Assembly (NCBI GenBank): GCA_903823865.1
Contig: CAIJUJ010000033.1
Location: forward strand, 1-43,866
Reading direction: 5' to 3'
DNA: 43,866 nucleotides
DNA from: an uncultured bacterium
Lineage (GTDB): Bacteria > Patescibacteriota > Minisyncoccia > Phycocordibacterales > GWA1-40-21
Shown here: in pieces, positions 9,989 through 34,357 of the stretch
How the letters are laid out: each line of letters begins with the position of its first letter
Numbering within the stretch: position 1 is the stretch's first letter
Notes under the pieces: generated by a model
Database searches by the model: none
What the model saw: only the letters and a program-made list of their open reading frames with translations
What the model was told of the DNA's origin: nothing
Translations under genes and position numbers: made by a program

Positions 9989-10326
9989 GCCTTTATATCG
10001 GATAACTACTCAAATAGTAATGTTTGGGAGGAAAGTCCGAACACTACCTAGATGTTAAAATTTAGGAGAAGGGTAGCGGGTAACGCCCGTCCATAGCAAT
10101 ATGAGAGGTGCGAACAGTGACGCCGATGCCGAAAGGCTAGGATTCCTTCGGGAATAATCTCATCGAGAGATGAGGGTGCAACGGCAAAATTCCTTACTTT
10201 AGTGCAAGGCCGTGCCTACCTCGTGTAGGAGCGCCGCTTGAGCCATTCAGTAATGTTTGGCCCAGATAGATGGTTATCTCGTTGTAGTAATACAGCGAAC
10301 AGAATTCGGCTTATAGGTATAGAGGT
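9989..10326 (+). ncRNA. rnpB: RNase P RNA
   Basis: GAGGAAAGTCCGAA and AACAGAATTCGGCTTA (P4 with compensatory changes); P1 CCTTTATATC/GGTATAGAGG; followed by hairpin terminator 10333-10360. Confidence 0.95.
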
Positions 10327-10367
10327 TATGGAGGGGGCGCACCGAAAGGTGCGCCCTTTTCTCATTA

Positions 10368-10505
10368 ACCCATTAAAGTTTTTGCCAATGTTTATTAAAA
10401 ATTTATTTATAAACACATCGTAAATATTTATGATTATGTTAAACTATCTGTACTGTTTATAATGTCAAAAATAAACAATTTTTATTGGCAAAAATTTTCT
10501 CGGGT
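10368..10505 (+). repeat. 138-bp inverted-arm promoter element, copy 1 (before murJ)
   Basis: ACCCATTAAAGTTTTTGCCAAT…ATTGGCAAAAATTTTCTCGGGT-AA-ATG. Confidence 0.9.
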
Positions 10506-10507
10506 AA

Positions 10508-12184
10508 ATGGTCAAAGGATTTTTTAAAATAATTAATAAAGAAGTTAGTGGTCTGCATCAGGCAGCTTATCTTTTGGCTTTTTTTGCAATATCATCACAA
10601 ATACTTGCGCTTATTAGAGATAGACTTTTAGCATCACACTTTGGTGCAGGTCACACTCTTGATCTTTATTATGCAGCGTTTAGAATTCCAGATTTTATTT
10701 TTATAACTGTTGGTTCAATGGTTTCAGTTTCAGTTCTTATTCCGTTTCTTGTTGAAAAAATGAAAGCTGGTTCAGAAGAGGGAAGAAAATTTATTGGAAA
10801 TATTTTTACTTTTTTCTTTTTATTAATTATTGTTATTAGTATAATCGCTTTTTTCTTTATCCCATCAATAAACAAATTACTTTTTACTGGTTTCAATAGT
10901 GCAGATTTAAGTATTGTAAATAACATGACAAGAATCTTGCTTTTGTCGCCTATTTTTCTTGGAATTTCCAACATTTTTGGTACTTTAACACAAACATACA
11001 AACGCTTTTTAATCTATTCTTTAAGCCCCATTTTGTACAATCTGGGCATTATTTTAGGAATTATTTTACTTTATCCAATGTTTGGTCTTGTTGGTTTGGT
11101 ACTTGGAGTAGTTGTTGGTGCTTTTTTACATTTTGCAATTCAGATCCCATTCATTGTTGAAAATAAATTTTTTCCAAAGCCAAAATTAAAATTTGATTTT
11201 GCTGAAATTAGAAAAGTTTTATTCGTTTCCATCCCAAGAACTTTTACTTTAGGTTCAGATAATATTTCAGTAATATTTTTACTTTCGTTTGCTTCATCAA
11301 TGGTAGCTGGCTCAATCGCAGTTTTTAACCTTTCATACAATATGCAATCCGTTTTACTTTCTGTTATTGGCGTAAGCTATTCTCTTGCAGCTTTTCCAAT
11401 ACTTGTTAGATTTTTTGCCGATGGAGAAAGGGGGAAATTTTTAGATCAAATTATTGTTTCAGCACAGCATATTATTTTTTGGTCGCTACCTTGTGTGGTT
11501 TTATTTATAACACTTCGTGCACAGATTGTCAGAACGATTTTGGGTGCAGGAGTATTTAATTGGACGCAGACACGTCTTACTGCTGCAGCACTTGCAGTGT
11601 TTGTTATTTCAATAATTTTTCAAAATCTTACTCTTTTATTTGTTCGAGCATATTATGCTGCTGGAAATACCAGGAAGCCATTTATAGCCAAATTTATCAA
11701 CGCCACTTCGACAGTAGCACTAGGTTTTGGCTTTATGATTTTATACAAAGTCTACCCACCATTTAAGGATTTACTTGAGAGTTTATTGAGAATAAAAGAT
11801 GTTCCTGGAACAATTATTTTAGCTTTGCCTTTAGGTTGGTCTGTCGGGGAAGTTTTAAATAGTTTAGTTTTATGGTTCATTTTTGAGAAAGATTTTAAAG
11901 GCTTTTCCAAACCAGTTTTAAAAACAGCACTCCAAGTTTTGTTGTCGTCACTTTCAATTGGTATTATAAGTTATTTTGCTTTGAATGTTTTTGCGCTCAT
12001 TTTTAATTTGGATACTGTTTTCGGTATATTTATGCAAGGATTTTTATCAGGGTTGCTAGGTATTTTAGTGGGTATAATTGTTTTAATTCTTTTGAAGAAC
12101 AAAGAAATTATTGATGTTCATAATACTTTAAAGAGCAAGATATCAAAAATTAAAATATTTGCACCAACACAAACTGGTCTATAA
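10508..12184 (+). CDS. murJ: Lipid II flippase MurJ
   Basis: SQILALIRDRLLASHFGAG…YYAAFRIPD, many TM helices, RAYYA…TRKP. Confidence 0.93.
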   Translation: MVKGFFKIINKEVSGLHQAAYLLAFFAISSQILALIRDRLLASHFGAGHTLDLYYAAFRIPDFIFITVGSMVSVSVLIPFLVEKMKAGSEEGRKFIGNIFTFFFLLIIVISIIAFFFIPSINKLLFTGFNSADLSIVNNMTRILLLSPIFLGISNIFGTLTQTYKRFLIYSLSPILYNLGIILGIILLYPMFGLVGLVLGVVVGAFLHFAIQIPFIVENKFFPKPKLKFDFAEIRKVLFVSIPRTFTLGSDNISVIFLLSFASSMVAGSIAVFNLSYNMQSVLLSVIGVSYSLAAFPILVRFFADGERGKFLDQIIVSAQHIIFWSLPCVVLFITLRAQIVRTILGAGVFNWTQTRLTAAALAVFVISIIFQNLTLLFVRAYYAAGNTRKPFIAKFINATSTVALGFGFMILYKVYPPFKDLLESLLRIKDVPGTIILALPLGWSVGEVLNSLVLWFIFEKDFKGFSKPVLKTALQVLLSSLSIGIISYFALNVFALIFNLDTVFGIFMQGFLSGLLGILVGIIVLILLKNKEIIDVHNTLKSKISKIKIFAPTQTGL

Positions 12185-12681: not shown

Positions 12682-12863
12682 CAATGATTCGCAAGGACAG
12701 ATAGTCATCTGTCCAAGTGAATTATTAATGCGTGGCGATGGAGGAATCGGAAGACGGAGGCTGACGAGCCGAGTCCGGGTCGCGAGATTTTTCAGCAGAA
12801 AAATACTTGTGACCGATCCACATCTCCCGCAAAATATTTTTATATATATGTTATAATTTATTC

Positions 12864-13220
12864 ATGAATCTTTTAGAAATCAAAGAATTAATTGAAAATA
12901 ATGCTGTAGCTTTTGCTACAATTACAGAGAATAACAAACCTAATGTTATTGGGGTTGATGGGGTAAAAATTGTTTCCGATAATCAGGTTTTGATTTCAGA
13001 CAATTTTATGAATCAAACAATCAAAGATATAGCAAATAATAAAAACGTTTGTTTAGCGGTTTGGAATAAAGATTTAAAAAGATGTAAATTAATTGGAGAA
13101 GCAGAATATTTTACAGAAGGAAAATGGAAAAAATATGTAGAAGAAATAAAAGAAAATGAAGGTCTTCCAGCTAAAGGTGCTATTTTGATAACTGTAGAAA
13201 AGATTATTCCTTCAGCTTAG
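12864..13220 (+). CDS. Pyridoxamine 5'-phosphate oxidase-like FMN-binding protein
   Basis: FATITENNKPNV, DNFMNQTIKDI..NKNVCL, KGAILITVEKI. Confidence 0.8.
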   Translation: MNLLEIKELIENNAVAFATITENNKPNVIGVDGVKIVSDNQVLISDNFMNQTIKDIANNKNVCLAVWNKDLKRCKLIGEAEYFTEGKWKKYVEEIKENEGLPAKGAILITVEKIIPSA

Positions 13221-20125: not shown

Positions 20126-20638
20126 ATGTTCATACCAGGCGAATTAATAGCACTGCTAACTTTTCCGGGAGTAATATTACACGAGTGGGCACACAAGAAG
20201 TTTTGTGATTGGAGTAAGGTCACAGTTTTCAAAGTAAAATATTTTCAATTTTGGAATAGGGAAGCGGGTTTTGTATTGCATGAACAACCAACAAAATTGA
20301 GCCAGACTTTTTGGATTTCAGTTGGCCCTCTACTATTTAATTCAATTCTTGTAATCATACTTGGATATATTATTGTGCACATTGTTCCAAGCACTTTCAA
20401 ATATTATCTATTGCTATGGCTTGCATTTTCTACAGGTCTTCACGCTTTTCCAAGCAATCCAGACGCGCAGAATGTTTTGAGTGATAGTAAAGAATTATTA
20501 GCAAAACACAGATTTCGTTTTTGGTATTATTTTGCTTATCCATTTTTCGGTTTGATTTGGCTTGCAAATAGATTGAGAGTTTATTGGTTTGATGTTTTTT
20601 ACACCGTTTTTTTAATTTATATTGGAATGTCAATCTAA
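20126..20638 (+). CDS. Membrane zincin-like metalloprotease (DUF3267-like)
   Basis: FPGVILHEWAH (HExxH), ISVGPL, HAFPSNPD. Confidence 0.75.
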   Translation: MFIPGELIALLTFPGVILHEWAHKKFCDWSKVTVFKVKYFQFWNREAGFVLHEQPTKLSQTFWISVGPLLFNSILVIILGYIIVHIVPSTFKYYLLLWLAFSTGLHAFPSNPDAQNVLSDSKELLAKHRFRFWYYFAYPFFGLIWLANRLRVYWFDVFYTVFLIYIGMSI

Positions 20639-20668
20639 ATTAATCGTTCAATTCTTTTTCTATCCTAA

Positions 20669-20710
20669 TAAACTTATTCTCAAATTCTTAAGAATTTGAG
20701 AATAAGTTTA
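20669..20710. repeat. Perfect 42-bp palindrome, copy A
   Basis: TAAACTTATTCTCAAATTCTT|AAGAATTTGAGAATAAGTTTA. Confidence 0.9.
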
Positions 20711-21001
20711 GAAGTTTAAAATAATTTCAACTATCTTTTTCCCATAAGGGGATATGCTGTGCTCTACCGTATGACCATTGTATTTTTTATTAAGTAAACC
20801 AGCACCAACCAATCTTCTTGTATGCTCGGCTGTTGTTTTAATATTTGTTTTTAATCTTTCTGTAATTTCAATCAAAGTTATTGATGGATTATTTGCGACA
20901 AGTAAAATAATATCTATTCGTTTTGAATTAGCTACGCCCTTAAAATGTCTCTCAAGTTGTTTAGATGTTTTGGTAATTTTCTTTTCTTTATAATATTTCA
21001 T
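20708..21001 (-). CDS. ArsR-like winged-helix regulator
   Basis: FKGVANSKRIDII…EITERLKTNIKTTAEHTRRLVGAGLL. Confidence 0.8.
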   Translation of the reverse strand: MKYYKEKKITKTSKQLERHFKGVANSKRIDIILLVANNPSITLIEITERLKTNIKTTAEHTRRLVGAGLLNKKYNGHTVEHSISPYGKKIVEIILNF

Positions 21002-21034
21002 TTTGTTTATATATTTACGTTGTTATCTGATTTA

Positions 21035-21070
21035 TTATATTCTCAAATTCTTAAGAAATTGAGAATATAA
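21035..21070. repeat. 36-bp palindrome (1 mismatch), copy B
   Basis: TTATATTCTCAAATTCTT|AAGAAATTGAGAATATAA. Confidence 0.9.
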
Positions 21071-21099
21071 ATATTGTTAATAAATTATTACTTAATTTT

Positions 21100-23650: not shown

Positions 23651-23799
23651 TGCTCCTCCTAGGTTTTGACAGTAAAAAAATGAAGCTTGTACATCTGAAT
23701 AAATGGTATAATTATCAAATAAGTTTGTCAAACAATAAGGCGGGCGCTTCGCGCCCGCCTTTTTACTGTTTAGTTTTTTCATTCAATAGGTGAATATTC

Positions 23800-23937
23800 A
23801 CCCGCTAAAGTTTTTGCCAATGTTTGTTAAAAATTGCTTTTAAAAACATAATCATAATTTATATATTTATATGCTATAATTTTCTTAATCATAAGGTCGG
23901 AACAAACAATTTTTATTGGCAAAAATTTTTCTCGGGT
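23800..23937 (+). repeat. 138-bp inverted-arm promoter element, copy 2 (before ftsQ)
   Basis: ACCCGCTAAAGTTTTTGCCAATGTTTGTTAAAAATT…TGCTATAAT…AACAAACAATTTTTATTGGCAAAAATTTTTCTCGGGT-AA-ATG. Confidence 0.9.
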
Positions 23938-23939
23938 AA

Positions 23940-24764
23940 ATGTCATACCAAAGATCAAATATAAGCACATCTTTACGCAGAAAGAGGCAAATGAGTCTTT
24001 TAAAAAAGATTGGAGTTTATTTTATTTTTATTTTATTTTTTATTTGTTCAGCAAATTATGGTTTGACTGCAAATGCGGTTCGTATTAAAAATGTTGTTGT
24101 TTCTGGAAATAATTCTGTTGCAACTGAAGATATTTTAAAAATTGTAAATACTGAACTCGACGAAGTTTATCTTAAAGTTACACCTACCGACAATATTCTT
24201 TTGCTTAGAAGTTCAACGATTGAAAATAAAGTTTTGAACACTTATAAAAAAATAGGAAAGGTTGATGTTATCATTCGTGGAATTACCAGTATTGAGATTG
24301 TGGTCACAGAAAGAAAATCTGATAATTTATGGTGTAAAGGTACACCGGCAGAAAGTAAAGGTTGTTATTTTATGGACTCGAGTGGATTTATTTTTGAAGA
24401 TGCTCCGATTTTTTCAAACAATAGTTTCCCAGAATATTTTGGTTTAATTTCAGACACAAACCCAATAGGCCAAATATATTTTGGTGATAATTTTAAAAAT
24501 ATTTCGAATTTATACAATGCGCTAAAAACAATGTCGTTTCAGCCACAGTATTTTAATGCTTTAAATGAACATGAATATGAGGTTTATATTTTGGGTGGAG
24601 GCAAAATTTTGATAAATGACAAAAAATCTTTTGAATCATCACTGACAAATCTTCAAGCTTTGGTTGATAACAAATACATTGCAAATGATAGTGCATCATT
24701 AAAGAAAATTAAATATGTTGATTTGAGATTTGGAAATAAAGTGAATTTTGAGTTGAATAAATAG
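23940..24764 (+). CDS. ftsQ: Cell division protein FtsQ/DivIB
   Basis: Basic N-terminus, one TM, POTRA (IKNVVVSGN), C-terminal YVDLRFGNKV. Confidence 0.8.
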   Translation: MSYQRSNISTSLRRKRQMSLLKKIGVYFIFILFFICSANYGLTANAVRIKNVVVSGNNSVATEDILKIVNTELDEVYLKVTPTDNILLLRSSTIENKVLNTYKKIGKVDVIIRGITSIEIVVTERKSDNLWCKGTPAESKGCYFMDSSGFIFEDAPIFSNNSFPEYFGLISDTNPIGQIYFGDNFKNISNLYNALKTMSFQPQYFNALNEHEYEVYILGGGKILINDKKSFESSLTNLQALVDNKYIANDSASLKKIKYVDLRFGNKVNFELNK

Positions 24765-24765
24765 G

Positions 24766-24838
24766 TGTCATTCCCGCGTAGGCGGGAATCTAGGTTGTCT
24801 TGTATTAATTATGGATTCCCGCCTACGCGGGAATGACA
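24766..24838. repeat. 73-bp dRS3/REP-like double palindrome, copy 1
   Basis: TGTCATTCCCGCGTAGGCGGGAATC…GATTCCCGCCTACGCGGGAATGACA. Confidence 0.85.
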
Positions 24839-24841
24839 ATA

Positions 24842-26740
24842 CTAAATCAACGAATCTGGATCAACATTTACCAGCACATCCATAGGCAAGTTTTTTAATT
24901 TCTCATACAAATCTTTTTCTGGCCATTTACTAGATACGATTTTAATTATTCCATTTACACCAAATTTTCCCTTTGATTGAGGAATAAAAGCTGGGAATAT
25001 ATCAATTTCAAATGGCTCAATCATTCTTTGAATATCTTGCACTAGTCCGAGCACCTCGTTTCTATTACCAATAATTGAAATTTTTATGAGTGTAGTAAAA
25101 GGTGGAAAATGTAATTTTTCTCTATCGTCAATTTCGTCTCTATAAAAATCTACAAGATTTCCTTTCACCGCATAATCAAAAACTTTCTGCGTTATATCTC
25201 TTGTTTGAATAATAAAATGTTTGTCAGTAATTGAACGGATTTTTAAAAGTATATTCAAAATTCTTTCATTGATTCTAAAATCAGGGATTGAAAAGAATGA
25301 ATCTATTGAAACAACCGCAGTGTTTTCTATTTTTTCTGTCAGATATAAAAGCGCCATTTCTGTTCCTACTAAAATTCCTTGTGGTGAATTATAAAATTTC
25401 TCTGCAACTTCCTCAGCTTTCTTGTGTGTTTTTGTTGCATCAGCATCAATTCTAAAAATGTTTGCTTTTGGATAAAGCTCTTTAACTTTTTCTTCCACAA
25501 GTTCAGAACCAATACCAAGTGTCGCAAGTCTCCATCCTCCACAATAAGAACATTTTTCTACAGCACTTCTTCTTTCTCCACATTTATGACAAAGAAAGAA
25601 ATTTTCTGCTGTAGATCTATGAAGTACCGTATGCGCTCCACAAGAATTACATTTTACGACATTTCCACAGTCTGCACATACAGTAGAAGGGGAAAGTCCT
25701 CTTCTTCCGGAAAAAATAAACATGTGTTCATTGTTTTCTATATTATCTTGTATTTTTTTTATGAACTCTTCACTTAAAACTGAAAAATATGTTTTCGTAT
25801 CATTTTTTTTGATAGTTCTCATATCTATGATTTCCTGCGTTGAGGTTGTCAGTGAGCGAAATTTTAAAGACATAAGTTCAACAAGCTCTCCTTTTTTTTG
25901 TCTCCAAATAGTATCTGTTCGCAAAAGCAAGTCCCCAAAAATTATTTTTGAATTTGTTTTTGTGGCAAACATTTCGGCAAACTTTCTGATATCTATATAA
26001 GGTCTCGTTTGCATTTTATAAGACCTAGAATTTTCTTTGTCCAAAATTATCGTTCCAATATTACTTTTTGGAATTGAAAGAAAACTTCCGGTGCCAATAA
26101 TAAGTAAAGGATGTTTTTCAGCTAGAATTTTATTTATAGTGTTTAAAATTTCTTTTTTACCCATTGAACCATGAAGAATATATGTGTATTGTTCAATTCC
26201 TTTGCAAAGGGATTCTTTTGCTTTTTTTATATCTTGGATGGTTGGTAAACAAAAAAATATTGAAGAGTTTTTTGCAAATTCCTCTCTTATGATACTTTTA
26301 TATTGAGCGTATCTATCCTCGTCAGTTGATTGAATTACAAATTTTTCTGCTTTTGTCGTTTTTTTGTGCTCCTCAATTTTGTGCGTTCCAAGTTTTATTT
26401 TTTCAGTATTTTCGAGTAAAACTTTTGGAACAAGAGAATTGAGTACAGAGCCTATCGAGCCAACATAATAGTTTGCAACTGTTTCAGCGGTTTCAATAAA
26501 AATTTTACTCAATAAATGAGAACATTTTGTTTTTGATATTTTTTTGAGAGCAAAAGAAGAATTTTTAATTTCTGTTTTTGATTCTCCAACATCTTTAGAA
26601 CTAATTACTAATGCTGGAATAATTCTCTTTCTCAATGGAACTTTTATTATTGAACCAACAGAAACATCACTTCCAGAAAAATATGAAAGCGTATCGTTTT
26701 TTATGCCTCTTGCTATAGGTATTACTTCAAGTATTTTCAT
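24842..26740 (-). CDS. priA: Primosomal protein N' (PriA) with degenerate helicase motifs
   Basis: N-terminal 3'-binding domain (LSY…GSIIKVPL), RRG + four CxxC, GIGSE, ILVGT, FPPF. Confidence 0.9.
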   Translation of the reverse strand: MKILEVIPIARGIKNDTLSYFSGSDVSVGSIIKVPLRKRIIPALVISSKDVGESKTEIKNSSFALKKISKTKCSHLLSKIFIETAETVANYYVGSIGSVLNSLVPKVLLENTEKIKLGTHKIEEHKKTTKAEKFVIQSTDEDRYAQYKSIIREEFAKNSSIFFCLPTIQDIKKAKESLCKGIEQYTYILHGSMGKKEILNTINKILAEKHPLLIIGTGSFLSIPKSNIGTIILDKENSRSYKMQTRPYIDIRKFAEMFATKTNSKIIFGDLLLRTDTIWRQKKGELVELMSLKFRSLTTSTQEIIDMRTIKKNDTKTYFSVLSEEFIKKIQDNIENNEHMFIFSGRRGLSPSTVCADCGNVVKCNSCGAHTVLHRSTAENFFLCHKCGERRSAVEKCSYCGGWRLATLGIGSELVEEKVKELYPKANIFRIDADATKTHKKAEEVAEKFYNSPQGILVGTEMALLYLTEKIENTAVVSIDSFFSIPDFRINERILNILLKIRSITDKHFIIQTRDITQKVFDYAVKGNLVDFYRDEIDDREKLHFPPFTTLIKISIIGNRNEVLGLVQDIQRMIEPFEIDIFPAFIPQSKGKFGVNGIIKIVSSKWPEKDLYEKLKNLPMDVLVNVDPDSLI

Positions 26741-26742
26741 TT

Positions 26743-26878
26743 ACCCGAGAAAATTTTTGCCAATAAAAATTGTTTGTTCGACTATATAATACAGTGAAAT
26801 TGTATCACAAAATCACCTTATCATGATATTGCCAAATTATTCAATTTTTAACAAATATTGGCAAAAACTTTAACGGGT
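26743..26878 (-). repeat. 136-bp inverted-arm promoter element, copy 3 (before priA)
   Basis: Reverse complement reads ACCCGTTAAAGTTTTTGCCAAT…TGATACAAT…ATTGGCAAAAATTTTCTCGGGT-AA-ATG. Confidence 0.9.
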
Positions 26879-26941
26879 GAATAATGACAGAAAATAGGTA
26901 TTTTTCAACCACTTAATATAAAAATTTGATATAATCTAAAT

Positions 26942-27559
26942 ATGCTTAAAATTTACATTGCGCGCCATGGTCAAAACGTAGATAACAAAAATGGTATTTT
27001 AAATGGTCATCGAGATGAACCACTTACTACTTTAGGTGAGAAACAGGCACAAGAAGTAGCTGAAGAAATCAAGAAAGATAATTTGTATTTTGATGTTGTT
27101 TACTCATCACCCCTTCAAAGAGCATATAAAACTGCAAAAATTATTTCTGATATATCAAATCAGTCACAACCTGTCGTATTAAATGAACTTATTGAAAGGG
27201 ATTTCGGAGTAATGACTGGAATTGAAGCTAAGAGAATTGAAGAATTGTGTGCACCTGAAATTATAAAATCAAAAACTATTACTTATTTTTTAAATCCAAA
27301 AGGTGCTGAAACTTTTGAAGATCTTCTAGAACGTGCTAAAAAACTTCTTAATTTTATTAAGAAAAATCATAATGATAAGTCAGTTCTTTTAGTTACCCAC
27401 GGAGATTTTGGAAAAATGATTTATGCTGAGTTTTATAAATTACCTTGGAAAAAAGTTCTTACAGATTTTCATTTTGGAAACTCTGAGATCCTGTATCTTT
27501 GTGAAAATTGTGATTTAAACAAAACACGCCTCTTCACCAGCAAACAATATAATCATTAA
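26942..27559 (+). CDS. Histidine phosphatase family protein
   Basis: RHG, SSPLQRA, ERDFG, VTHG. Confidence 0.92.
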   Translation: MLKIYIARHGQNVDNKNGILNGHRDEPLTTLGEKQAQEVAEEIKKDNLYFDVVYSSPLQRAYKTAKIISDISNQSQPVVLNELIERDFGVMTGIEAKRIEELCAPEIIKSKTITYFLNPKGAETFEDLLERAKKLLNFIKKNHNDKSVLLVTHGDFGKMIYAEFYKLPWKKVLTDFHFGNSEILYLCENCDLNKTRLFTSKQYNH

Positions 27560-28372: not shown

Positions 28373-29911
28373 TCAGTCTCTAAGCATTTTAATCTTAGCC
28401 CCCAAATTATTTAACCTTTTTGCTATATCTTCATAACCACGATTGATACTATATACATTTCTTAAAATTGATTTTCCTTCGGCGCCGAGCATTCCTATCA
28501 AAATAATTGCAGCTGGGCGAAGAGCTGGAGGACAGATAATTTCTGCTGGTTTTAGCTTAGTTTTTCCATTTACGTAAAATCTATGCTGGTCTGCCAAGAT
28601 GGTGTCTGCGCCAAGTTTGTCGAGCTCCTTATAATGAATTGCACGATTTTCATAAACCCAGTCATGAATCAATGTTTGCCCTTCTGCTTGTGTGGCAATA
28701 AGCGCAAAGAAGGGAAGATTGTCTATATTTAATCCTGGATAAGGTCTAGATTCAATTTTGTCGTGAAGTGCTTTGAGCGTGGAAGGAAAAGTTTTGATAT
28801 CAACAAGGTCTGTTTTACCATTCAAAGCTTTATACTTTTTTGAGATTTTAAATTTAAAACCCATTTTTTTGAGTTTAAGTAATTCTATTTCAAGAAAATC
28901 AATTGGACATCTTTCAATTGTAATACCAGATTTTGTAACAGCAGCAACTGCAATAAAAAACATTGTATCAATAGGGTCTTCCGCGAGATAGTAAGTAATA
29001 TTTTTATTTATTTCTTTTACTCCATGTATTGTAATTGTCGTGGTACCAACTCCATCAATCTGAATTCCAAGTTCTTGCAAAAAGAAACACAAATCTTGTA
29101 CTTGATAGTTTGATGAAGCAAATTTAATTGTCGTTTTTCCAGGAATAAGTGCTGCAGCCATAATAGCGTTTTCTGTCACTGTATCTCCAGATTCATATAA
29201 TGCAAATTCTGCAGGCTTGAGTTTTTCTCTCGTGATTTCATAACTAAAATTTTTTGTTTTAATATTAACGCCAAAATTTTCAAGTGCAAAAAAATGTGGA
29301 GTAACAGTCCTATTTCCTAGCTTGCATCCACCTGAGTGGGGAAGAGAAAATTTTTTGTACATATGAATCAGCGGGCCAATAAACATAATGACACTGCGAG
29401 TTCTCTGTGCCGACTCTTTATTTATTTTTTTAATATCAATTTTTTTAGCTTCAATTTCCAAATCATTACCAACCCATTTGATTGAAACGCCAATGCTAGA
29501 CAGCGCTTCTATTATTCTATAAACCTCTTCAATTTTTGGAACATTTTTTAGGTTTGTTTTTCCTTTATTCATAAGTGATGCGGAAATAATTCCCATTGCA
29601 CCGTTTTTTGATGTTTTTGTAATAATGTTCCCAAAAAGTTTATGTCCGCCATCTATTTCAAAGTTGATTGCGCCAGTAGAGAGACTCATTATTTCGCTAC
29701 CAAGTACTTCACTGATTTTTGTTATCATTTCTGTTGTGAGATTTTGTTCACCACTTTCGATTCTGGCTATAACACTTTGTGTTGTACCAAGCTTTTCTGC
29801 GAATGCTGTTTGTGTAAAACCTTTTCTTTCGCGAATCTCTGCTATTAAATTTCCTATTTGAGATAATTTGCTTGCCCCGTTTGAATTTTCACTTGGTTTT
29901 AAATTTGACAT
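28373..29911 (-). CDS. murA: UDP-N-acetylglucosamine 1-carboxyvinyltransferase with N-terminal XRE HTH
   Basis: IRERKGFTQTAFAEKLGTTQSVIARIESG HTH; SKNG, GGCKLGNR catalytic Cys loop, PYPG, INRGYE. Confidence 0.93.
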   Translation of the reverse strand: MSNLKPSENSNGASKLSQIGNLIAEIRERKGFTQTAFAEKLGTTQSVIARIESGEQNLTTEMITKISEVLGSEIMSLSTGAINFEIDGGHKLFGNIITKTSKNGAMGIISASLMNKGKTNLKNVPKIEEVYRIIEALSSIGVSIKWVGNDLEIEAKKIDIKKINKESAQRTRSVIMFIGPLIHMYKKFSLPHSGGCKLGNRTVTPHFFALENFGVNIKTKNFSYEITREKLKPAEFALYESGDTVTENAIMAAALIPGKTTIKFASSNYQVQDLCFFLQELGIQIDGVGTTTITIHGVKEINKNITYYLAEDPIDTMFFIAVAAVTKSGITIERCPIDFLEIELLKLKKMGFKFKISKKYKALNGKTDLVDIKTFPSTLKALHDKIESRPYPGLNIDNLPFFALIATQAEGQTLIHDWVYENRAIHYKELDKLGADTILADQHRFYVNGKTKLKPAEIICPPALRPAAIILIGMLGAEGKSILRNVYSINRGYEDIAKRLNNLGAKIKMLRD

Positions 29912-29988
29912 GACGTTGGTATTTATTAAATATAAGTTATTAAAAAATATTGATAATTGTTAAAAAATTCTTTACGGGGTTTGACATT

Positions 29989-30121
29989 GACCGAGAAAAT
30001 TTTTGCTGATGAAAATGTGTTGATATTAAATGATTAGTAAATTTTTATTAATATTATGTTTATCAAAAGGTATGTCTGTAGGCTATTCATTTTCAACACA
30101 TCAGCAAAAACTTTAACGGGT
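29989..30121 (-). repeat. 133-bp inverted-arm element, divergent copy 4 (upstream of murA)
   Basis: Reverse complement reads ACCCGTTAAAGTTTTTGCTGATGTGTTGAAAAT…CAACACATTTTCATCAGCAAAAATTTTCTCGGTC, with compensatory changes in both arms. Confidence 0.85.
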
Positions 30122-30343
30122 AAATTATAGCATATCGGCTATAAAATAGAATAGTTTAAAAGTAGCAAGTTGTAAGTTAAAAAGTAAATTTATAATTTCC
30201 AATCTACGCCATGGCGTAGATTAGAATTAATACATTTTTGGTGAGTTTGCAATTAATCAAAAAAAAGCTAATATATGTTTATAAGATTTCAGTTGCATTT
30301 TACAACTTTCAACTTAGAACTTTTAACTTTAAAACTTAATCAT

Positions 30344-31357: not shown

Positions 31358-31374
31358 TAAAATAATGACCTCCT

Positions 31375-31960
31375 CCCCGGGTTCCGCTACGCTGCGCCCG
31401 GGGTTTCCTTTTCAAGCATGAGGATTCTAGTTGAACAATCTGAGTTTTTGTGGCACATCTTTCTTGCCCTGCCATTTTATATATTTTCGTACTTGAGTTT
31501 CGTTCAATCCTATTGTTGATGAAAAATATCCAACACTCCAGATGCCGTCTTTTTCGAGGTATATCTCGCGTATAAATTTAAATTTTGAACGCAAATATCT
31601 ACTTGATATTGCTTTCAGTTTTCCGACAGCATCTGAGATTGTGATATTTGGTGGTACTTCAATCTGCATGTGAACATGATCCTCATCAGTATTCAAGGTT
31701 TCAATCCAGAGTGTTGGATATTTTTTCACAGTCGCGTACAATATTTTCTTCAACTCTATTAGTACATATGGCTTCAGTATTTTTCTTCTATACTTTGTAC
31801 CCCATATTACGTGGTATTGATGTTGATATGTGGAGTGATTTAGATTACGAATCCTCATGGAAACAGCATATCACGTTTAGTGAACATGGTGGTACTTTCT
31901 ACCCCCGCCCTCCGGAGTTCAAACAAATACCCTTATCTTGGGGATGTTCCGGGCGGGGTT
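31375..31960 (-). mobile_element. IS200/IS605-family element (tnpA only) with subterminal hairpins
   Basis: tnpA flanked by CCCCGGG…CCCGGGG (31375-31403) and ACCCCGCCC…GGGCGGGGT (31901-31959); exact ends not determined. Confidence 0.7.
31427..31858 (-). CDS. tnpA: IS200-type Y1 HUH transposase
   Basis: YHVIWGTKYRR, DHVHM (HUH), WSVGYF, KYIKWQ (catalytic Tyr). Confidence 0.95.
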   Translation of the reverse strand: MRIRNLNHSTYQHQYHVIWGTKYRRKILKPYVLIELKKILYATVKKYPTLWIETLNTDEDHVHMQIEVPPNITISDAVGKLKAISSRYLRSKFKFIREIYLEKDGIWSVGYFSSTIGLNETQVRKYIKWQGKKDVPQKLRLFN

Positions 31961-31969
31961 CTGGGAAAG

Positions 31970-32005: not shown

Positions 32006-32027
32006 AATTTGTCTATTTCTGCTATTT

Positions 32028-32167
32028 ACCCGATAAAGTTTTTGCCAATGTTTATCAAAAATTTCTTACTCTAAACTAAATTACAGTTAATATTATTTTG
32101 TGCTACAATTTTGATATCATCACGCGAGCAGAATAAACAATTTTTATTGGCAAAAATTTTCTCGGGT
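32028..32167 (+). repeat. 140-bp inverted-arm promoter element, copy 5 (before holB)
   Basis: ACCCGATAAAGTTTTTGCCAAT…TGCTACAAT…ATTGGCAAAAATTTTCTCGGGT; ATG 12 nt later. Confidence 0.9.
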
Positions 32168-32179
32168 GAATAAATAGTA

Positions 32180-32908
32180 ATGAAAAGCTTAAACTTATCA
32201 ATAAAAAACAACAACTTACACCACGCCTATTGTATTTTGGGTGATTCTACTGATGTTATAAATGAACTAAAAACATTCTTTTTGAAAGAACTAAATTTTT
32301 CTGTGGCAGACAACCCAGATTATTGGTACGGAAAATTTGATGTCATGGATATTGAAGATGGCAGAGCAATAAAAAACTCACACCAAAATAAGCCAATCGA
32401 AGGAGATAAAAAAATATTTGTAGTTTCAGCAAATTTTATTACCGAAAAAGCTCAAAATGCAATGTTAAAACTTTTTGAAGAACCAAGAGGCGATACGCAT
32501 TTCTTTTTGGTATTGCCGTCGTTAAGTAATATTATTCCAACTTTCCGCTCAAGGTTTTTTGTTATTGATGCAAATGAGTCCAACGATTCAATAATAAATC
32601 CAAAAGAATTTTTACAAATGTCTTTAGGAAAGAGAATGGATTCTGTGAAAAAGATTTGCGGGAATGTTTTCCACGAAAAGTCTAGAGACCTCGTGGCAAG
32701 CGATGATGAAAAAAGTAAAATCGAAATCATTAAATTTATCAATGCGCTCGAAGTTGAACTTAAGGAAAGAATTGATTTTTTGAAAACCAGCAAGGGTGAA
32801 ATAAAAGTTTTTGAAGAAATTGAGAAAGTGCGACAATATGCTGGTGAGCAATCTCCATCATTAAAAATGTTATTAGAACATTTATCATTAGTTTTACCTG
32901 TATCTTGA
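32180..32908 (+). CDS. holB: DNA polymerase III delta'-like clamp-loader subunit (short)
   Basis: HHAY, NPD, AQNAMLKLFEEP, PTFRSR. Confidence 0.8.
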   Translation: MKSLNLSIKNNNLHHAYCILGDSTDVINELKTFFLKELNFSVADNPDYWYGKFDVMDIEDGRAIKNSHQNKPIEGDKKIFVVSANFITEKAQNAMLKLFEEPRGDTHFFLVLPSLSNIIPTFRSRFFVIDANESNDSIINPKEFLQMSLGKRMDSVKKICGNVFHEKSRDLVASDDEKSKIEIIKFINALEVELKERIDFLKTSKGEIKVFEEIEKVRQYAGEQSPSLKMLLEHLSLVLPVS

Positions 32909-32910
32909 AT

Positions 32911-32983
32911 TGTCATTCCCGCGAAGGCGGGAATCTAGGTTGTATTTAATTAGTTTTGGATTCCCGCCTTCGCGAGAATGATA
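32911..32983. repeat. 73-bp dRS3/REP-like double palindrome, copy 2
   Basis: TGTCATTCCCGCGAAGGCGGGAATC…GATTCCCGCCTTCGCGAGAATGATA. Confidence 0.85.
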
Positions 32984-33029: not shown

Positions 33030-33581
33030 ATGTCATACGATTTTAAAAAATTAAAAGATAGTATTAAAGGTTCGGAAGAATGGTTGAAAAAAGAATATTC
33101 TGGTCTAAGAACTGGTATTGCGAGTCCATCTATTTTAGATGGTGTGCAAGTTGAGGTTTATGGTTCAAGAATGCCGATAAACCAAGTTGCAAATATTGGT
33201 ATTGAAGATGCACGAGTTATCAGAATTACTCCTTGGGATAAATCACAATCAAAAGCAATTGAAAAAGCCATCACAGTTGCCAATCTTGGTGTGTCTGTTG
33301 GTATCGATGATAAAGGTGTCAGAATATTTTTCCCGGAATTAACGGGTGACAGAAGGGCACTACTCATAAAAACAGCAAAAGCTAAACTTGAAGATGCAAA
33401 AGTAAATATTAGGGGTTTTAGAGACATCGCTTCTACAGAAATAGATACACAAGAGAAAAAAGGCGGAATGGGAGAAGACGATAAATTTAGATACAAAAAA
33501 GAAATGCAAAAAATTGTTGATGAAGGAAATGCATCCCTTGAAGCACTGCTTGTTAAAAAAGAGAAAGAAATTAATTCCTAG
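33030..33581 (+). CDS. frr: Ribosome recycling factor
   Basis: LRTGIASPSILD, YGSRMPINQVA, PWDK, PELT..RR, KEKEI. Confidence 0.96.
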   Translation: MSYDFKKLKDSIKGSEEWLKKEYSGLRTGIASPSILDGVQVEVYGSRMPINQVANIGIEDARVIRITPWDKSQSKAIEKAITVANLGVSVGIDDKGVRIFFPELTGDRRALLIKTAKAKLEDAKVNIRGFRDIASTEIDTQEKKGGMGEDDKFRYKKEMQKIVDEGNASLEALLVKKEKEINS

Positions 33582-33716
33582 CCCGTTAAAGTTTTTGCCA
33601 ATGTTTGTTAAAAATTGGTCATATACACCAAAACATGATTTTGTATAAAAGTAATTTAAAACAGTTGATTGTAACGTCGAGACAAACAATTTTTATTGGC
33701 AAAAATTTTCTCGGGT
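33581..33716 (+). repeat. 136-bp inverted-arm element, copy 6 (before the peptidase-rseP operon)
   Basis: GCCCGTTAAAGTTTTTGCCAATGTTTGTTAAAAATT…GACAAACAATTTTTATTGGCAAAAATTTTCTCGGGT-AA-ATG. Confidence 0.9.
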
Positions 33717-33718
33717 AA

Positions 33719-34357
33719 ATGATTTATAAAATTAAAGAGTATAAAAATAAGCTAATTGAAAAAGCTTATCGTGATGGGATGAAGGAATCTAATGCCTTTT
33801 TTGGCACCAACTGGGTTTATGGTTTACCAAATGTTCTTATTTTGAATAATAGGAAAGAAATAGATAACTTTATGGGTCAGAAAAGTATGGGAAGAAGCGT
33901 TGGTTTTTCTGGTCACAGAATTGTATACATACTTGATAATAATAATATGGAAAAAGAAAGTATTCACAAAAAACTTTCTGATGCAGATTATTATACTCTG
34001 ATCAAACATGAGATTTGTCATTTGTTTTATTATAAGTATTCTCATAATTGTATAAAACCCAAATGGCTTTGGGAGGGGGTATCAATATATTTGTCAAAAC
34101 AAACTGTGTATACAAAACCAAAATCATTTTTGATGTTCATTGATTCGGATACAAAAAATGTTGACAGTGCTTTTTATGAAGGTGGTTTTGCTGTCAAATT
34201 GCTAATTGAAAATTTTGGTAAGAAAAAAATACTTAAACTCATTTCTCGTTCCAGCGAGGTAAAAAATAAAAATGAATTTTCAAAATTGTTTAAAAAAATA
34301 TACAATTTTGATTTAAATTACAAAAATTTTAATAATTTGTTAAAAAAAAATAAATAA
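33719..34357 (+). CDS. Peptidase MA-like (gluzincin) protein
   Basis: HEICH…PKWLWEGVSIY. Confidence 0.75.
   Translation: MIYKIKEYKNKLIEKAYRDGMKESNAFFGTNWVYGLPNVLILNNRKEIDNFMGQKSMGRSVGFSGHRIVYILDNNNMEKESIHKKLSDADYYTLIKHEICHLFYYKYSHNCIKPKWLWEGVSIYLSKQTVYTKPKSFLMFIDSDTKNVDSAFYEGGFAVKLLIENFGKKKILKLISRSSEVKNKNEFSKLFKKIYNFDLNYKNFNNLLKKNK

Follow-up and report, generated by a model that had tools for sequence, protein, structure and literature searches.

Free-standing GIY-YIG homing genes, such as the seg genes of T-even phages, and the intron-borne I-TevI encode nucleases that combine the catalytic domain with a DNA-binding domain and address one cognate site each. In the REP/REPIN systems, short hairpin repeats are kept beside a small nuclease-type gene, RAYT (Y1/HUH), and the REPINs usually lie downstream of genes. 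In invertible promoters, e.g., fimS of Escherichia coli or those of Bacteroides, inverted repeats bracket the promoter. For the Correia elements (CREE) of Neisseria, we know of no cognate enzyme. These elements are reported to donate promoters to neighboring genes, and their co-transcribed hairpins to bind RNase III (PMC2649163). Here we analyze a repeated element with complementary ends that occurs six times in a 43,866-nt stretch of DNA (contig CAIJUJ010000033.1; hereinafter the window) from an uncultured bacterium of the Patescibacteriota. The copy preceding an ftsQ-type gene contains the motif TGCTATAAT, which a preliminary description had interpreted as the extended -10 box of a promoter switched by inversion. 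We propose, with moderate confidence, that this motif is the -10 box (TGnTAnnnT) of an outward-directed promoter carried by a miniature mobile element that derives from a cassette encoding a GIY-YIG nuclease.

The window is contig C33 of a 677-kb genome (G000; 33% G+C, 96.8% complete). A domain search detects in it a type IV secretion system (T4SS)-type pilin and other traits of the Candidate Phyla Radiation (CPR)/Patescibacteria, and the relatives of the 89-aa nuclease described below that were retrieved by homologue search are labeled Candidatus Taylorbacteria or Paceibacterota. The comparison set comprised 24 other genomes of the genus and 16 other families of the order, and junctions were counted over 26 genomes of the genus. 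In total, 79 copies of the element were parsed; the short copies (125-145 nt) number 52 and were drawn from G000, G022, G017, and G007. The 11 sequencing runs that match the window are all DNA metagenomes, and their Logan contigs were compared at 85% likeness, so that some may represent sister species rather than strains.

Anatomy of the Element

The exact 11-bp core TTTTTGCCAAT occurs in the window as inverted pairs at 10379/10484, 23811/23915, 26754/26857, 32039/32146, and 33592/33705, with a core-to-core spacing of 102-107 bp. When at most one mismatch is allowed, the window contains 16 matches compared with 6.2 +/- 2.5 expected, a number that none of 100 shuffles reaches. The six copies and their internal motifs are:

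23798-23939, plus strand: copy 2, from TCA and CCCG to CTCGGGTAA, directly 5' of an ftsQ-type gene (ATG at 23940; FtsQ POTRA domain)
23872-23880, plus strand: TGCTATAAT, internal extended -10 of copy 2, the motif under study
10366-10507, plus strand: copy 1, between the RNase P RNA gene (9990-10329) and murJ (ATG at 10508)
10437-10445, plus strand: TGTTAAACT, internal extended -10 of copy 1
26741-26880, minus strand: copy 3, before priA (ATG at 26740, minus strand; priA 3'BD domain)
26799-26807, minus strand: TGATACAAT, internal extended -10 of copy 3
29987-30123, minus strand: copy 4, degenerate, lacking an internal extended -10 and belonging to the arm subfamily GCTGAT/ATCAGC
32026-32169, plus strand: copy 5, before a holB-type gene (host ATG at 32180), with a mutated ATG of its own (GGGTGAATA)
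32101-32109, plus strand: TGCTACAAT, internal extended -10 of copy 5
33579-33718, plus strand: copy 6, before a Peptidase_MA-like gene (ATG at 33719), with no internal extended -10
33635-33718, plus strand: mini open reading frame (mini-ORF) of copy 6, 27 codons, ending at the TAA that abuts the host ATG

As the preliminary description had noted, all six share the same arm arrangement. Genome-wide, a profile built from ten copies retrieves 21 full-length copies in G000 (nhmmer), and a regular-expression search yields 26 copies with both arms, namely 19 of 133-141 nt, one of 161 nt, four of 208-233 nt, and two of 296 nt. All 26 aim at an ORF, and in 20 of them ATG directly follows the terminal TAA (...CTCGGGTAA). 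The orientation is fixed: each of the 79 parsed copies lies directly 5' of a gene and is directed toward it. The host genes of G000 are unrelated housekeeping genes, including murJ, ftsQ, priA, holB, and a peptidase gene in the window, and dnaE, holA, xth, an RNase H-like exonuclease gene, comEC, comM, pheS, a release factor gene, the RNase J gene (rnj), clpB, rnpA, rsmE, and rpiB outside it.

The first ~22 nt of the cassette pair with the last ~25 nt. Within these arms the outer 15 bp are nearly invariant, and the next 5-6 bp are variable yet complementary (GCCAA/TTGGC, GCTGA/TCAGC, GTTGA/TCAAC, ACTAA/TTAGT, GCTAA/TTAGC, GCGAA/TTCGC, ACGAA/TTCGT, GTCGA/TCGAC, and others). The inner 5-mers, in 10 variants, are 98.7% paired, compared with a mean of 84.6% and a maximum of 88.1% when partners are shuffled; this covariation indicates that arm pairing is under selection. 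Fixed G.U pairs occur at arm positions 10 and 22 and a fixed C.A at position 21. As RNA, the whole element is predicted to fold into one long hairpin (-27.4 kcal/mol, z score -3.0), and the pairing could take place in RNA, in single-stranded DNA, or in cruciform DNA. An Rfam search at gathering thresholds returned the RNase P RNA and two tRNAs in the window, with no match at the elements.

The vicinity of copy 4 shows further traces of this kind. Between this copy and the start of the adjacent murA gene (29911), positions 29912-29990 (minus strand) contain an older arm-like remnant CCCCGTAAAGAATTTTTT and a 15-codon ORF that begins at the element's ATG; this region resembles an earlier insertion that has decayed. 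At locus L078 of G017 a tandem arrangement is clear, with CCCG following directly on the arm end CTCGGGTGAA. The MurA protein itself (28373-29911, minus strand) is an unusual fusion, joining an N-terminal HTH_3 (XRE-type) domain and the EPSP_synthase fold in one 512-aa ORF; G003 has the same HTH-MurA start region without the element.

Descent From a GIY-YIG Nuclease Cassette

Both 296-nt copies of G000, one located before pheS (contig C15) and the other before a gene for a small secreted-type protein (C29), hold an ORF of 89 codons. The encoded proteins match the GIY-YIG domain PF01541 with 53.4 and 53.7 bits (cut-off 22.6) and so belong to the GIY-YIG superfamily. Their best relatives with solved structures are the UPF0213 proteins 1zg2 (E 4e-4) and 1ywl (E 9e-3), and in the alignment with 1zg2 the positions Y-x-Y, Y-x-G, Arg, and Glu coincide; almost all homologues are 82-92 aa long. 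The ORF starts inside the inner hairpin (GCATTATGCAAT...ATTGCATAATGC) and ends in the right arm as ...FFISKNFLG-TAA, its stop codon being the TAA of CTCGGGTAA; the form of the right arm with four T residues keeps the nuclease frame (GGC AAA AAT TTT CTC GGG TAA). Because the ORF ends inside the right arm, the right arm of the short copies corresponds to the final codons of that gene.

G022, G017, and G007 also contain intact copies of 296 nt that have these ends, as do other Paceibacteria-type records, in which the layout is always -10 box, arm, ORF, arm with TAA, and ATG. The ratio of nonsynonymous to synonymous substitution rates (dN/dS) in the nuclease ORF is 0.044-0.179 for the 30 of 36 pairs in which dS is not saturated, which indicates that the ORF is under purifying selection, the nuclease activity itself being predicted. 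Intermediates of 148-233 nt trace a stepwise loss of the ORF, and the 19 copies of 133-141 nt in G000 contain no ORF or mini-ORFs of 14-28 codons. [quoted passage not shown] By all these sequence features, the element of 133-141 bp, which lacks the ORF, descends from a 296-bp cassette with the gene for an 89-aa GIY-YIG nuclease.

Patchy Presence and Near-Identical Copies

Matches to the right arm range from 0 to 27 per genome and are present in 15 of the 24 other genomes of the genus; in the 16 other families of the order none was found. Presence also varies locus by locus: the element precedes priA in 6 of 24 relatives and ftsQ in 2 of 20 readable loci. Within the lake metagenomes, a related population in run X5 lacks 23792-23938 (copy 2) and has 13 other bases there, an X5 contig skips 32027-32169 (copy 5), and in an X5 contig 37 other bases replace 33543-33717 (copy 6). 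In G017, two copies of 296 nt located at different loci do not differ in sequence, and five G000 copies located before unrelated genes are 88-96% identical, the core included. Such near-identity at unrelated loci points to recent copying or gene conversion.

Among related species, the patchy presence of the element co-varies with the nuclease gene and not with serine recombinases. An intact nuclease of at least 72% identity is encoded in eight genomes, all with at least 10 arm matches, and the nine genomes without arm matches contain no intact nuclease at this level of identity. This distribution is consistent with the GIY-YIG protein being the putative mobilizing enzyme.

The Internal Extended -10 Motif

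A motif scan recovers TGnTAnnnT in copies 1, 2, 3, and 5 at precisely the positions first reported, and copies 4 and 6 (29987-30123, minus strand, and 33579-33718), for which weak matches alone had been noted, indeed have no such motif in the span considered below. The arrangement, with TG one base upstream of TAnnnT at a conserved position, is that of a sigma-70 extended -10 box. For the motif of copy 2, the predicted start site falls near 23887, 52-53 nt 5' of the ftsQ ATG (23940). Across the whole window TGNTANNNT occurs at chance level (136 matches vs. 138.5 +/- 13.3 expected). Within the short copies, TGnTAnnnT with its hexamer ending 48-64 nt before the host ATG is present in 19 of 52, with 15 of the 19 at 57-60 nt; 1000 shuffles of the core gave a mean of 2.41 +/- 1.54 such copies and at most 9. 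In G000 alone, 10 of the 19 short copies have the motif at this fixed offset. Plain TAnnnT is not enriched in the same span (37 vs. 33.8). The non-random feature is the fixed offset of the motif inside the element, not its abundance.

The motif is also conserved between species. In five of six orthologous pairs (ftsQ of G000/G003, murJ of G000/G007, priA of G000/G007 and of G007/G022, and a further gene of G022/G017), the TG and the first, second, and sixth positions of the hexamer (T, A, and T) are kept while the neighboring core diverges, and the changes are confined to the n positions (TGCTATAAT/TGTTATAAT, TGTTAAACT/TGCTAAAAT, TGATACAAT/TGCTATAAT). At the ftsQ orthologue of G003, for instance, TGTTATAAT stands within a diverged core. 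A seventh pair that was compared (C9-4799/L066) has different downstream genes and likewise keeps the motif. The mini-ORF form of 14-17 codons lies downstream of the internal -10, and in three copies, both copies on contig C23 and the one at L053, the motif stands exactly 6 nt before the mini-ORF ATG, the same spacing as at leaderless genes.

This spacing corresponds to the start signals of the genome at large. Among the 584 ORFs of at least 90 aa in G000, TAnnnT ends 6 nt 5' of the first ATG in 92 and 7 nt in 54, compared with ~18-34 at distant offsets, and tetramers resembling the Shine-Dalgarno (SD) sequence and ending 4-8 nt upstream of the ATG precede only 74. From the frequency of TAnnnT at 6-7 nt and the paucity of SD-like tetramers, we infer that many transcription units of G000 are leaderless; judging from motif spacing, the grammar is (TGn)TATAAT, 6-7 nt, and ATG. 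The form TGnTATAAT with a 6-nt spacer before ATG is found in the window at three places:

1977-1985: TGnTATAAT, followed after 6 nt by the ATG at 1992
12849-12857: TGnTATAAT, followed after 6 nt by the ATG at 12864
26927-26935: TGnTATAAT, followed after 6 nt by the ATG at 26942

In the literature searched we found no description of leaderless genes in CPR bacteria; in the passages of PMC12641178 consulted, leaderless translation is mentioned only in connection with YchF.

The internal extended -10 probably works as an outward promoter. The suggestion that transcription starts between the arms stands insofar as one subfamily conserves a gene-directed extended -10 whose position is fixed and which fits the promoter grammar of the genome, with the amendment that starts outside the element are likely too. 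Similarly, a transcript from the motif would indeed have a 5' untranslated region (UTR) of ~50 nt that lacks an SD sequence and is predicted to be unstructured (-6.3 kcal/mol, z score 0.13).

Insertion Sites and Host Promoters

A TAnnnT ends exactly 3 nt before the CCCG of the left arm in 31 of the 79 copies, compared with 1-8 copies at other offsets, and 14 of the 31 have TG. Two host promoter sequences that abut a left arm in the window are:

26881-26908, minus strand: host priA promoter, TTGAAA-16 nt-(TG)CATTAT, abutting the left arm of copy 3
30124-30132, minus strand: host extended -10 TGCTATAAT, abutting the left arm of copy 4

The 3-nt spacing suggests that the host promoter usually abuts the left arm, so that its start would fall on the first bases of the element. 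In many copies, the left arm is therefore probably part of the transcript, and the notion that it lies upstream of a -35 box is not supported for these.

The priA locus illustrates this type of insertion. Relatives share the host promoter whether or not they have the element; empty sites read TTGAAAAA-N-TTTCTG(T/A)CATTAT followed after 6-9 nt by ATG, and the element, where present, lies exactly between CATTAT and ATG. At murJ the situation differs. In G003, which has no element there, a native promoter TTGAAA...TGTATAAT precedes the ATG by 17 nt. In G000 and G007, the element takes the place of the native promoter and directly follows the RNase P RNA gene (in the window, RF00010, 104.8 bits, with its end ~36 nt before copy 1), no -10 being found upstream. 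Given the position of the RNA gene next to copy 1, murJ follows this gene with the element alone in between, and the internal extended -10 is the only promoter-like sequence before the essential murJ in G000 and G007.

In element-poor genomes, solo GGGTAAATG sequences, the candidate excision footprints, number 3-7 per genome and the reversed controls 0-4, so that no clear excess over chance emerges. A single suggestive case is the priA site of G003, CATTAT-AGGGTAA-ATG.

A Proposed Mechanism and the Observations That Weigh on It

We propose the following course of events. The parent 296-bp cassette lies between a host promoter and ATG such that its stop codon touches the host start codon (TAAATG). 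At a leaderless gene, in which the -10 box lies 6-7 nt before the ATG, such an insertion would part the gene from its promoter, and copies might accordingly persist where expression is restored. Restoration could be achieved in one of three ways: (a) by the internal extended -10 promoter, in the subfamily with the motif; (b) by a mini-ORF in the nuclease frame that ends at TAA-ATG and might allow termination-reinitiation, i.e., translational coupling; or (c) by the retained host promoter reading across the hairpin. With respect to (b), 11 copies, copy 6 included, contain a mini-ORF of 27-28 codons that starts at a conserved ATCATGA. Internal deletions stripped out the nuclease ORF and yielded the copies of 133-141 bp, in which both arms are kept, possibly because they are needed for copying and/or RNA folding, and the core is free to change.

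Several observations weigh against this interpretation. With respect to the promoter, the 19 motif-bearing copies belong nearly all to one arm subfamily (GCCAAT/GCCAAC, with one ACCAAC), so that, sharing descent, they are not independent and the count of 19 overstates the independent support. The motif is missing in 33 of the 52 short copies, copies 4 and 6 of the window included, and in the sixth orthologous pair, at a holA-type gene (C23-9620/L071), it is not kept (TGATACAAT vs. TGATAAGCT, one base apart). Many motif-bearing copies also retain a good host -10 at the left arm, which may render the internal promoter redundant. With respect to the pairing, wobble pairs and A.C mismatches are equally frequent at the variable arm positions (8 vs. 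8), with no strand preference, and pairing in RNA would require that the left arm be transcribed from upstream. With respect to mobility, no target-site duplication can be defined, given that the T(A/C)A before CCCG and the TAA after CGGG belong invariably to the element itself; the left junction is variable, following the -10 box at priA and the RNase P RNA gene at murJ; and two genomes, G002 with 16 arm matches and G001 with 11, contain no close nuclease gene.

Alternative Explanations

The strongest competitor accepts the GIY-YIG miniature and takes TGnTAnnnT for an inherited, non-functional relic, such that transcription would proceed solely from the host promoter at the left arm and the whole element would form a hairpin within the 5' UTR, which RNase III might cleave or ribosomes on the mini-ORF might melt. 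The precise 3-nt spacing of the host -10, the conservation of the priA promoter irrespective of the element, the covariation and stable folding of the arms, the presence of an RNase III gene in G000 (C22:18795-19187), the common descent of the motif-bearing copies, and the orthologous pair that lost the motif are all compatible with this explanation. It is at odds with the murJ copies of G000 and G007, which abut the RNase P RNA gene with the native promoter gone, with the motif remaining intact amid a diverging core in most orthologous pairs, and with the three copies in which the motif has the 6-nt spacing of leaderless genes. We consider the relic unlikely, if well worth bearing in mind, and favor the internal promoter.

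Much less plausible is a regulon signal, in which the arms would be paired operators (looping, ~104 bp from center to center) or a riboregulator common to the genes of a regulon for replication and division. The uniform core spacing and targets such as dnaE, holA, holB, priA, ftsQ, and murJ would suit such a signal, which we nevertheless regard as very improbable: the gene set differs between close species, as the counts at priA and ftsQ demonstrate, pheS, rpiB, clpB, and a release factor gene are among the targets as well, the inner arm varies freely provided that it remains paired, which is not how protein operators evolve, and the right arm is a remnant of coding sequence. Helical phasing of the arms for protein looping was likewise considered, and the covariation pattern speaks against it. 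A separate, sigma-54-like reading of TGGCA-N-TTTC in the right arm, considered from the sequence alone, was dropped, the GC of the -12 box being missing.

The least tenable explanation is the original one, according to which a recombinase would flip the segment between the 11-bp cores and thereby turn the internal promoter toward or away from the gene: inverted repeats do flank a promoter-like motif, a copy in G012 (C95:5650-5675) shows the junction that inversion would produce, and genes for three large serine recombinases and a single tyrosine recombinase are present in G000 outside the window, but the forward junction is found 65 times and the inverted one once in the 26 genomes, a single orientation is seen in all 79 parsed copies, and among the joints listed for the contigs none joins opposite strands within one element, a weaker point. 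The arms, which had been cast as recombination sites, are explained as the complementary ends of the nuclease cassette. No site-specific recombinase is adjacent to the window copies, and serine recombinases do not track the element across genomes as the GIY-YIG gene does: G007, with 18 arm matches, encodes none, and six of the nine arm-less genomes encode 1-6. Judged at the level of contigs, at which rare inversions within a population would escape notice, the element is not a phase-variable inversion switch. The exceptional copy (L119, G012:C95:5450-5950) is the only one found with the outer parts of the arms swapped relative to the core, and its core, with TATAAT, still faces the gene, which fits selection on the direction of the core rather than a switch.

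The earlier statement that the window lacks a recombinase needs some correction, for an IS200-type Y1 transposase ORF (PF01797, E 1.4e-28) occupies 31427-31858 on the minus strand. We rejected this transposase as the mobilizer of the element: it is the sole copy in the genome, its GC-rich ends are unlike the arms, and it behaves as its own insertion of 606 bp (31364-31969), with the ORF between GC-rich hairpins; in an X5 contig the insertion is missing and 31363 is joined to 31970. G000 has a single tyrosine recombinase match, an Xer-like protein in a 318-aa frame (C10:12132-12692), which lies ~50 nt upstream of the element copy at C10:12743-12896 that precedes an exonuclease III gene; this proximity is probably a coincidence.

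Further Cassette Families and Implications

A second GIY-YIG cassette family is represented in G000 at C8:9561-9837 (minus strand), with the ends ATGAATCCCGTTAGAGATA...TATCTCTAACGGGATGA. Its ORF has a leaderless ATG (TGATATAAT and 7 nt), and its TGA stop codon overlaps the host ATG (ATGA). The right end of this family recurs at ~8 places in G000, and a short derivative is present at the priA start of G009 (L012). The window also contains two 71-nt doublets of the hairpin ATTCCCGCGnAGGCGGGAAT (24766-24836 and 32911-32981), of which 28 units, located downstream of genes, are found in G000. Units of ATTCCCGCGnAGGCGGGAAT in inverted orientation flank another GIY-YIG ORF (C8:37405-37617, in the region G000:C8:37360-37830), so that the doublets appear to be the miniatures of yet another family of GIY-YIG cassettes. 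The doublet at 24766-24836 is missing in contigs of three runs (which skip from 24752 to 24842). Another small mobile element may be present at 20632-21098 (467 bp), with 30-nt inverted repeats (20675-20704/21038-21067) and a 97-aa ORF (20708-21001, minus strand); contigs of X5 and X6 have TA in its place.

These observations lead us to a broader, tentative suggestion, which we rate as possible and short of probable, namely, that stand-alone UPF0213-type GIY-YIG nucleases of 89 aa mobilize a class of bacterial mini-transposons that has not been described before. Such elements would be 0.3 kb in size with self-complementary ends, would insert precisely at the start codons of leaderless genes, would keep host expression by stop-start coupling (TAAATG, or ATGA in the second family) or by their own promoter, and would leave MITE-like offspring, in at least three families (the present one, CCCGTTAGAG...CTAACGGGATGA, and the ATTCCCGCGnAGGCGGGAAT doublets) that would be the main repeats of these ultra-small genomes. 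Mobility would then be a possible, testable role for a widespread family of tiny GIY-YIG proteins whose function is otherwise not known.

In a genome of ~600 genes, about 26, including dnaE, holA, holB, priA, ftsQ, murJ, and pheS, carry the element between promoter and start codon, and the expression of these core genes may depend on the sequence of a selfish element. Conceivably, this is a natural case of harmless insertion at a leaderless start, by means of a carried-in promoter, stop-start coupling, or a hairpin that joins the ends. For genome annotation, the element would account for a recurrent 'conserved 5' region' and for spurious small ORFs in Paceibacteria-type genomes.

Comparison With Known Systems

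The literature searched, supplements aside, yielded neither an account of mobility or of complementary flanking arms for UPF0213 genes nor a description of bacterial GIY-YIG cassettes with miniature derivatives; in PMC12455944, the one passage on GIY-YIG names such a protein only among transferred genes. The stand-alone UPF0213/YhbQ proteins (1zg2, 1ywl) share with the cassette protein the size class and the domain, at weak sequence similarity.

Like CREE, the elements are ~100-150 bp long, have terminal inverted repeats, occur in many copies beside genes, appear to supply promoters, and form predicted hairpins. There is no sequence relation between the two, however, and in the present case there is a parent that shares the ends and retains the whole nuclease ORF, both orientation and position, directly 5' of the start codon, are fixed, and the promoter lies in the core, whereas in CREE it lies at the ends. 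With seg genes and I-TevI, the cassette has in common a small intergenic GIY-YIG gene that is missing at the same site in relatives and whose start codon lies in a hairpin. In contrast to these, its 89-aa product consists of the catalytic domain alone, with no fused DNA-binding domain, the family occupies at least 26 sites in one genome rather than one cognate site, and it has complementary termini and ORF-less miniatures; the cassette is not a free-standing homing endonuclease gene.

The parallel with REPIN/RAYT is a non-autonomous population of many short hairpin repeats together with one or a few nuclease genes flanked by the same repeats. The differences are that the nuclease is of the GIY-YIG rather than the HUH type, that the repeats are positioned at start codons rather than downstream of genes, and that the Y1 transposase of this genome has unrelated ends. 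Unlike fimS and the invertible promoters of Bacteroides, the elements have no dedicated recombinase nearby, serine recombinases are not co-distributed with them, and only one orientation relative to the gene is found. The elements thus differ from CREE, homing genes, and REPIN/RAYT in combining a bare 89-aa enzyme with a fixed start-codon position and orientation and with a stop-start junction at the host gene.

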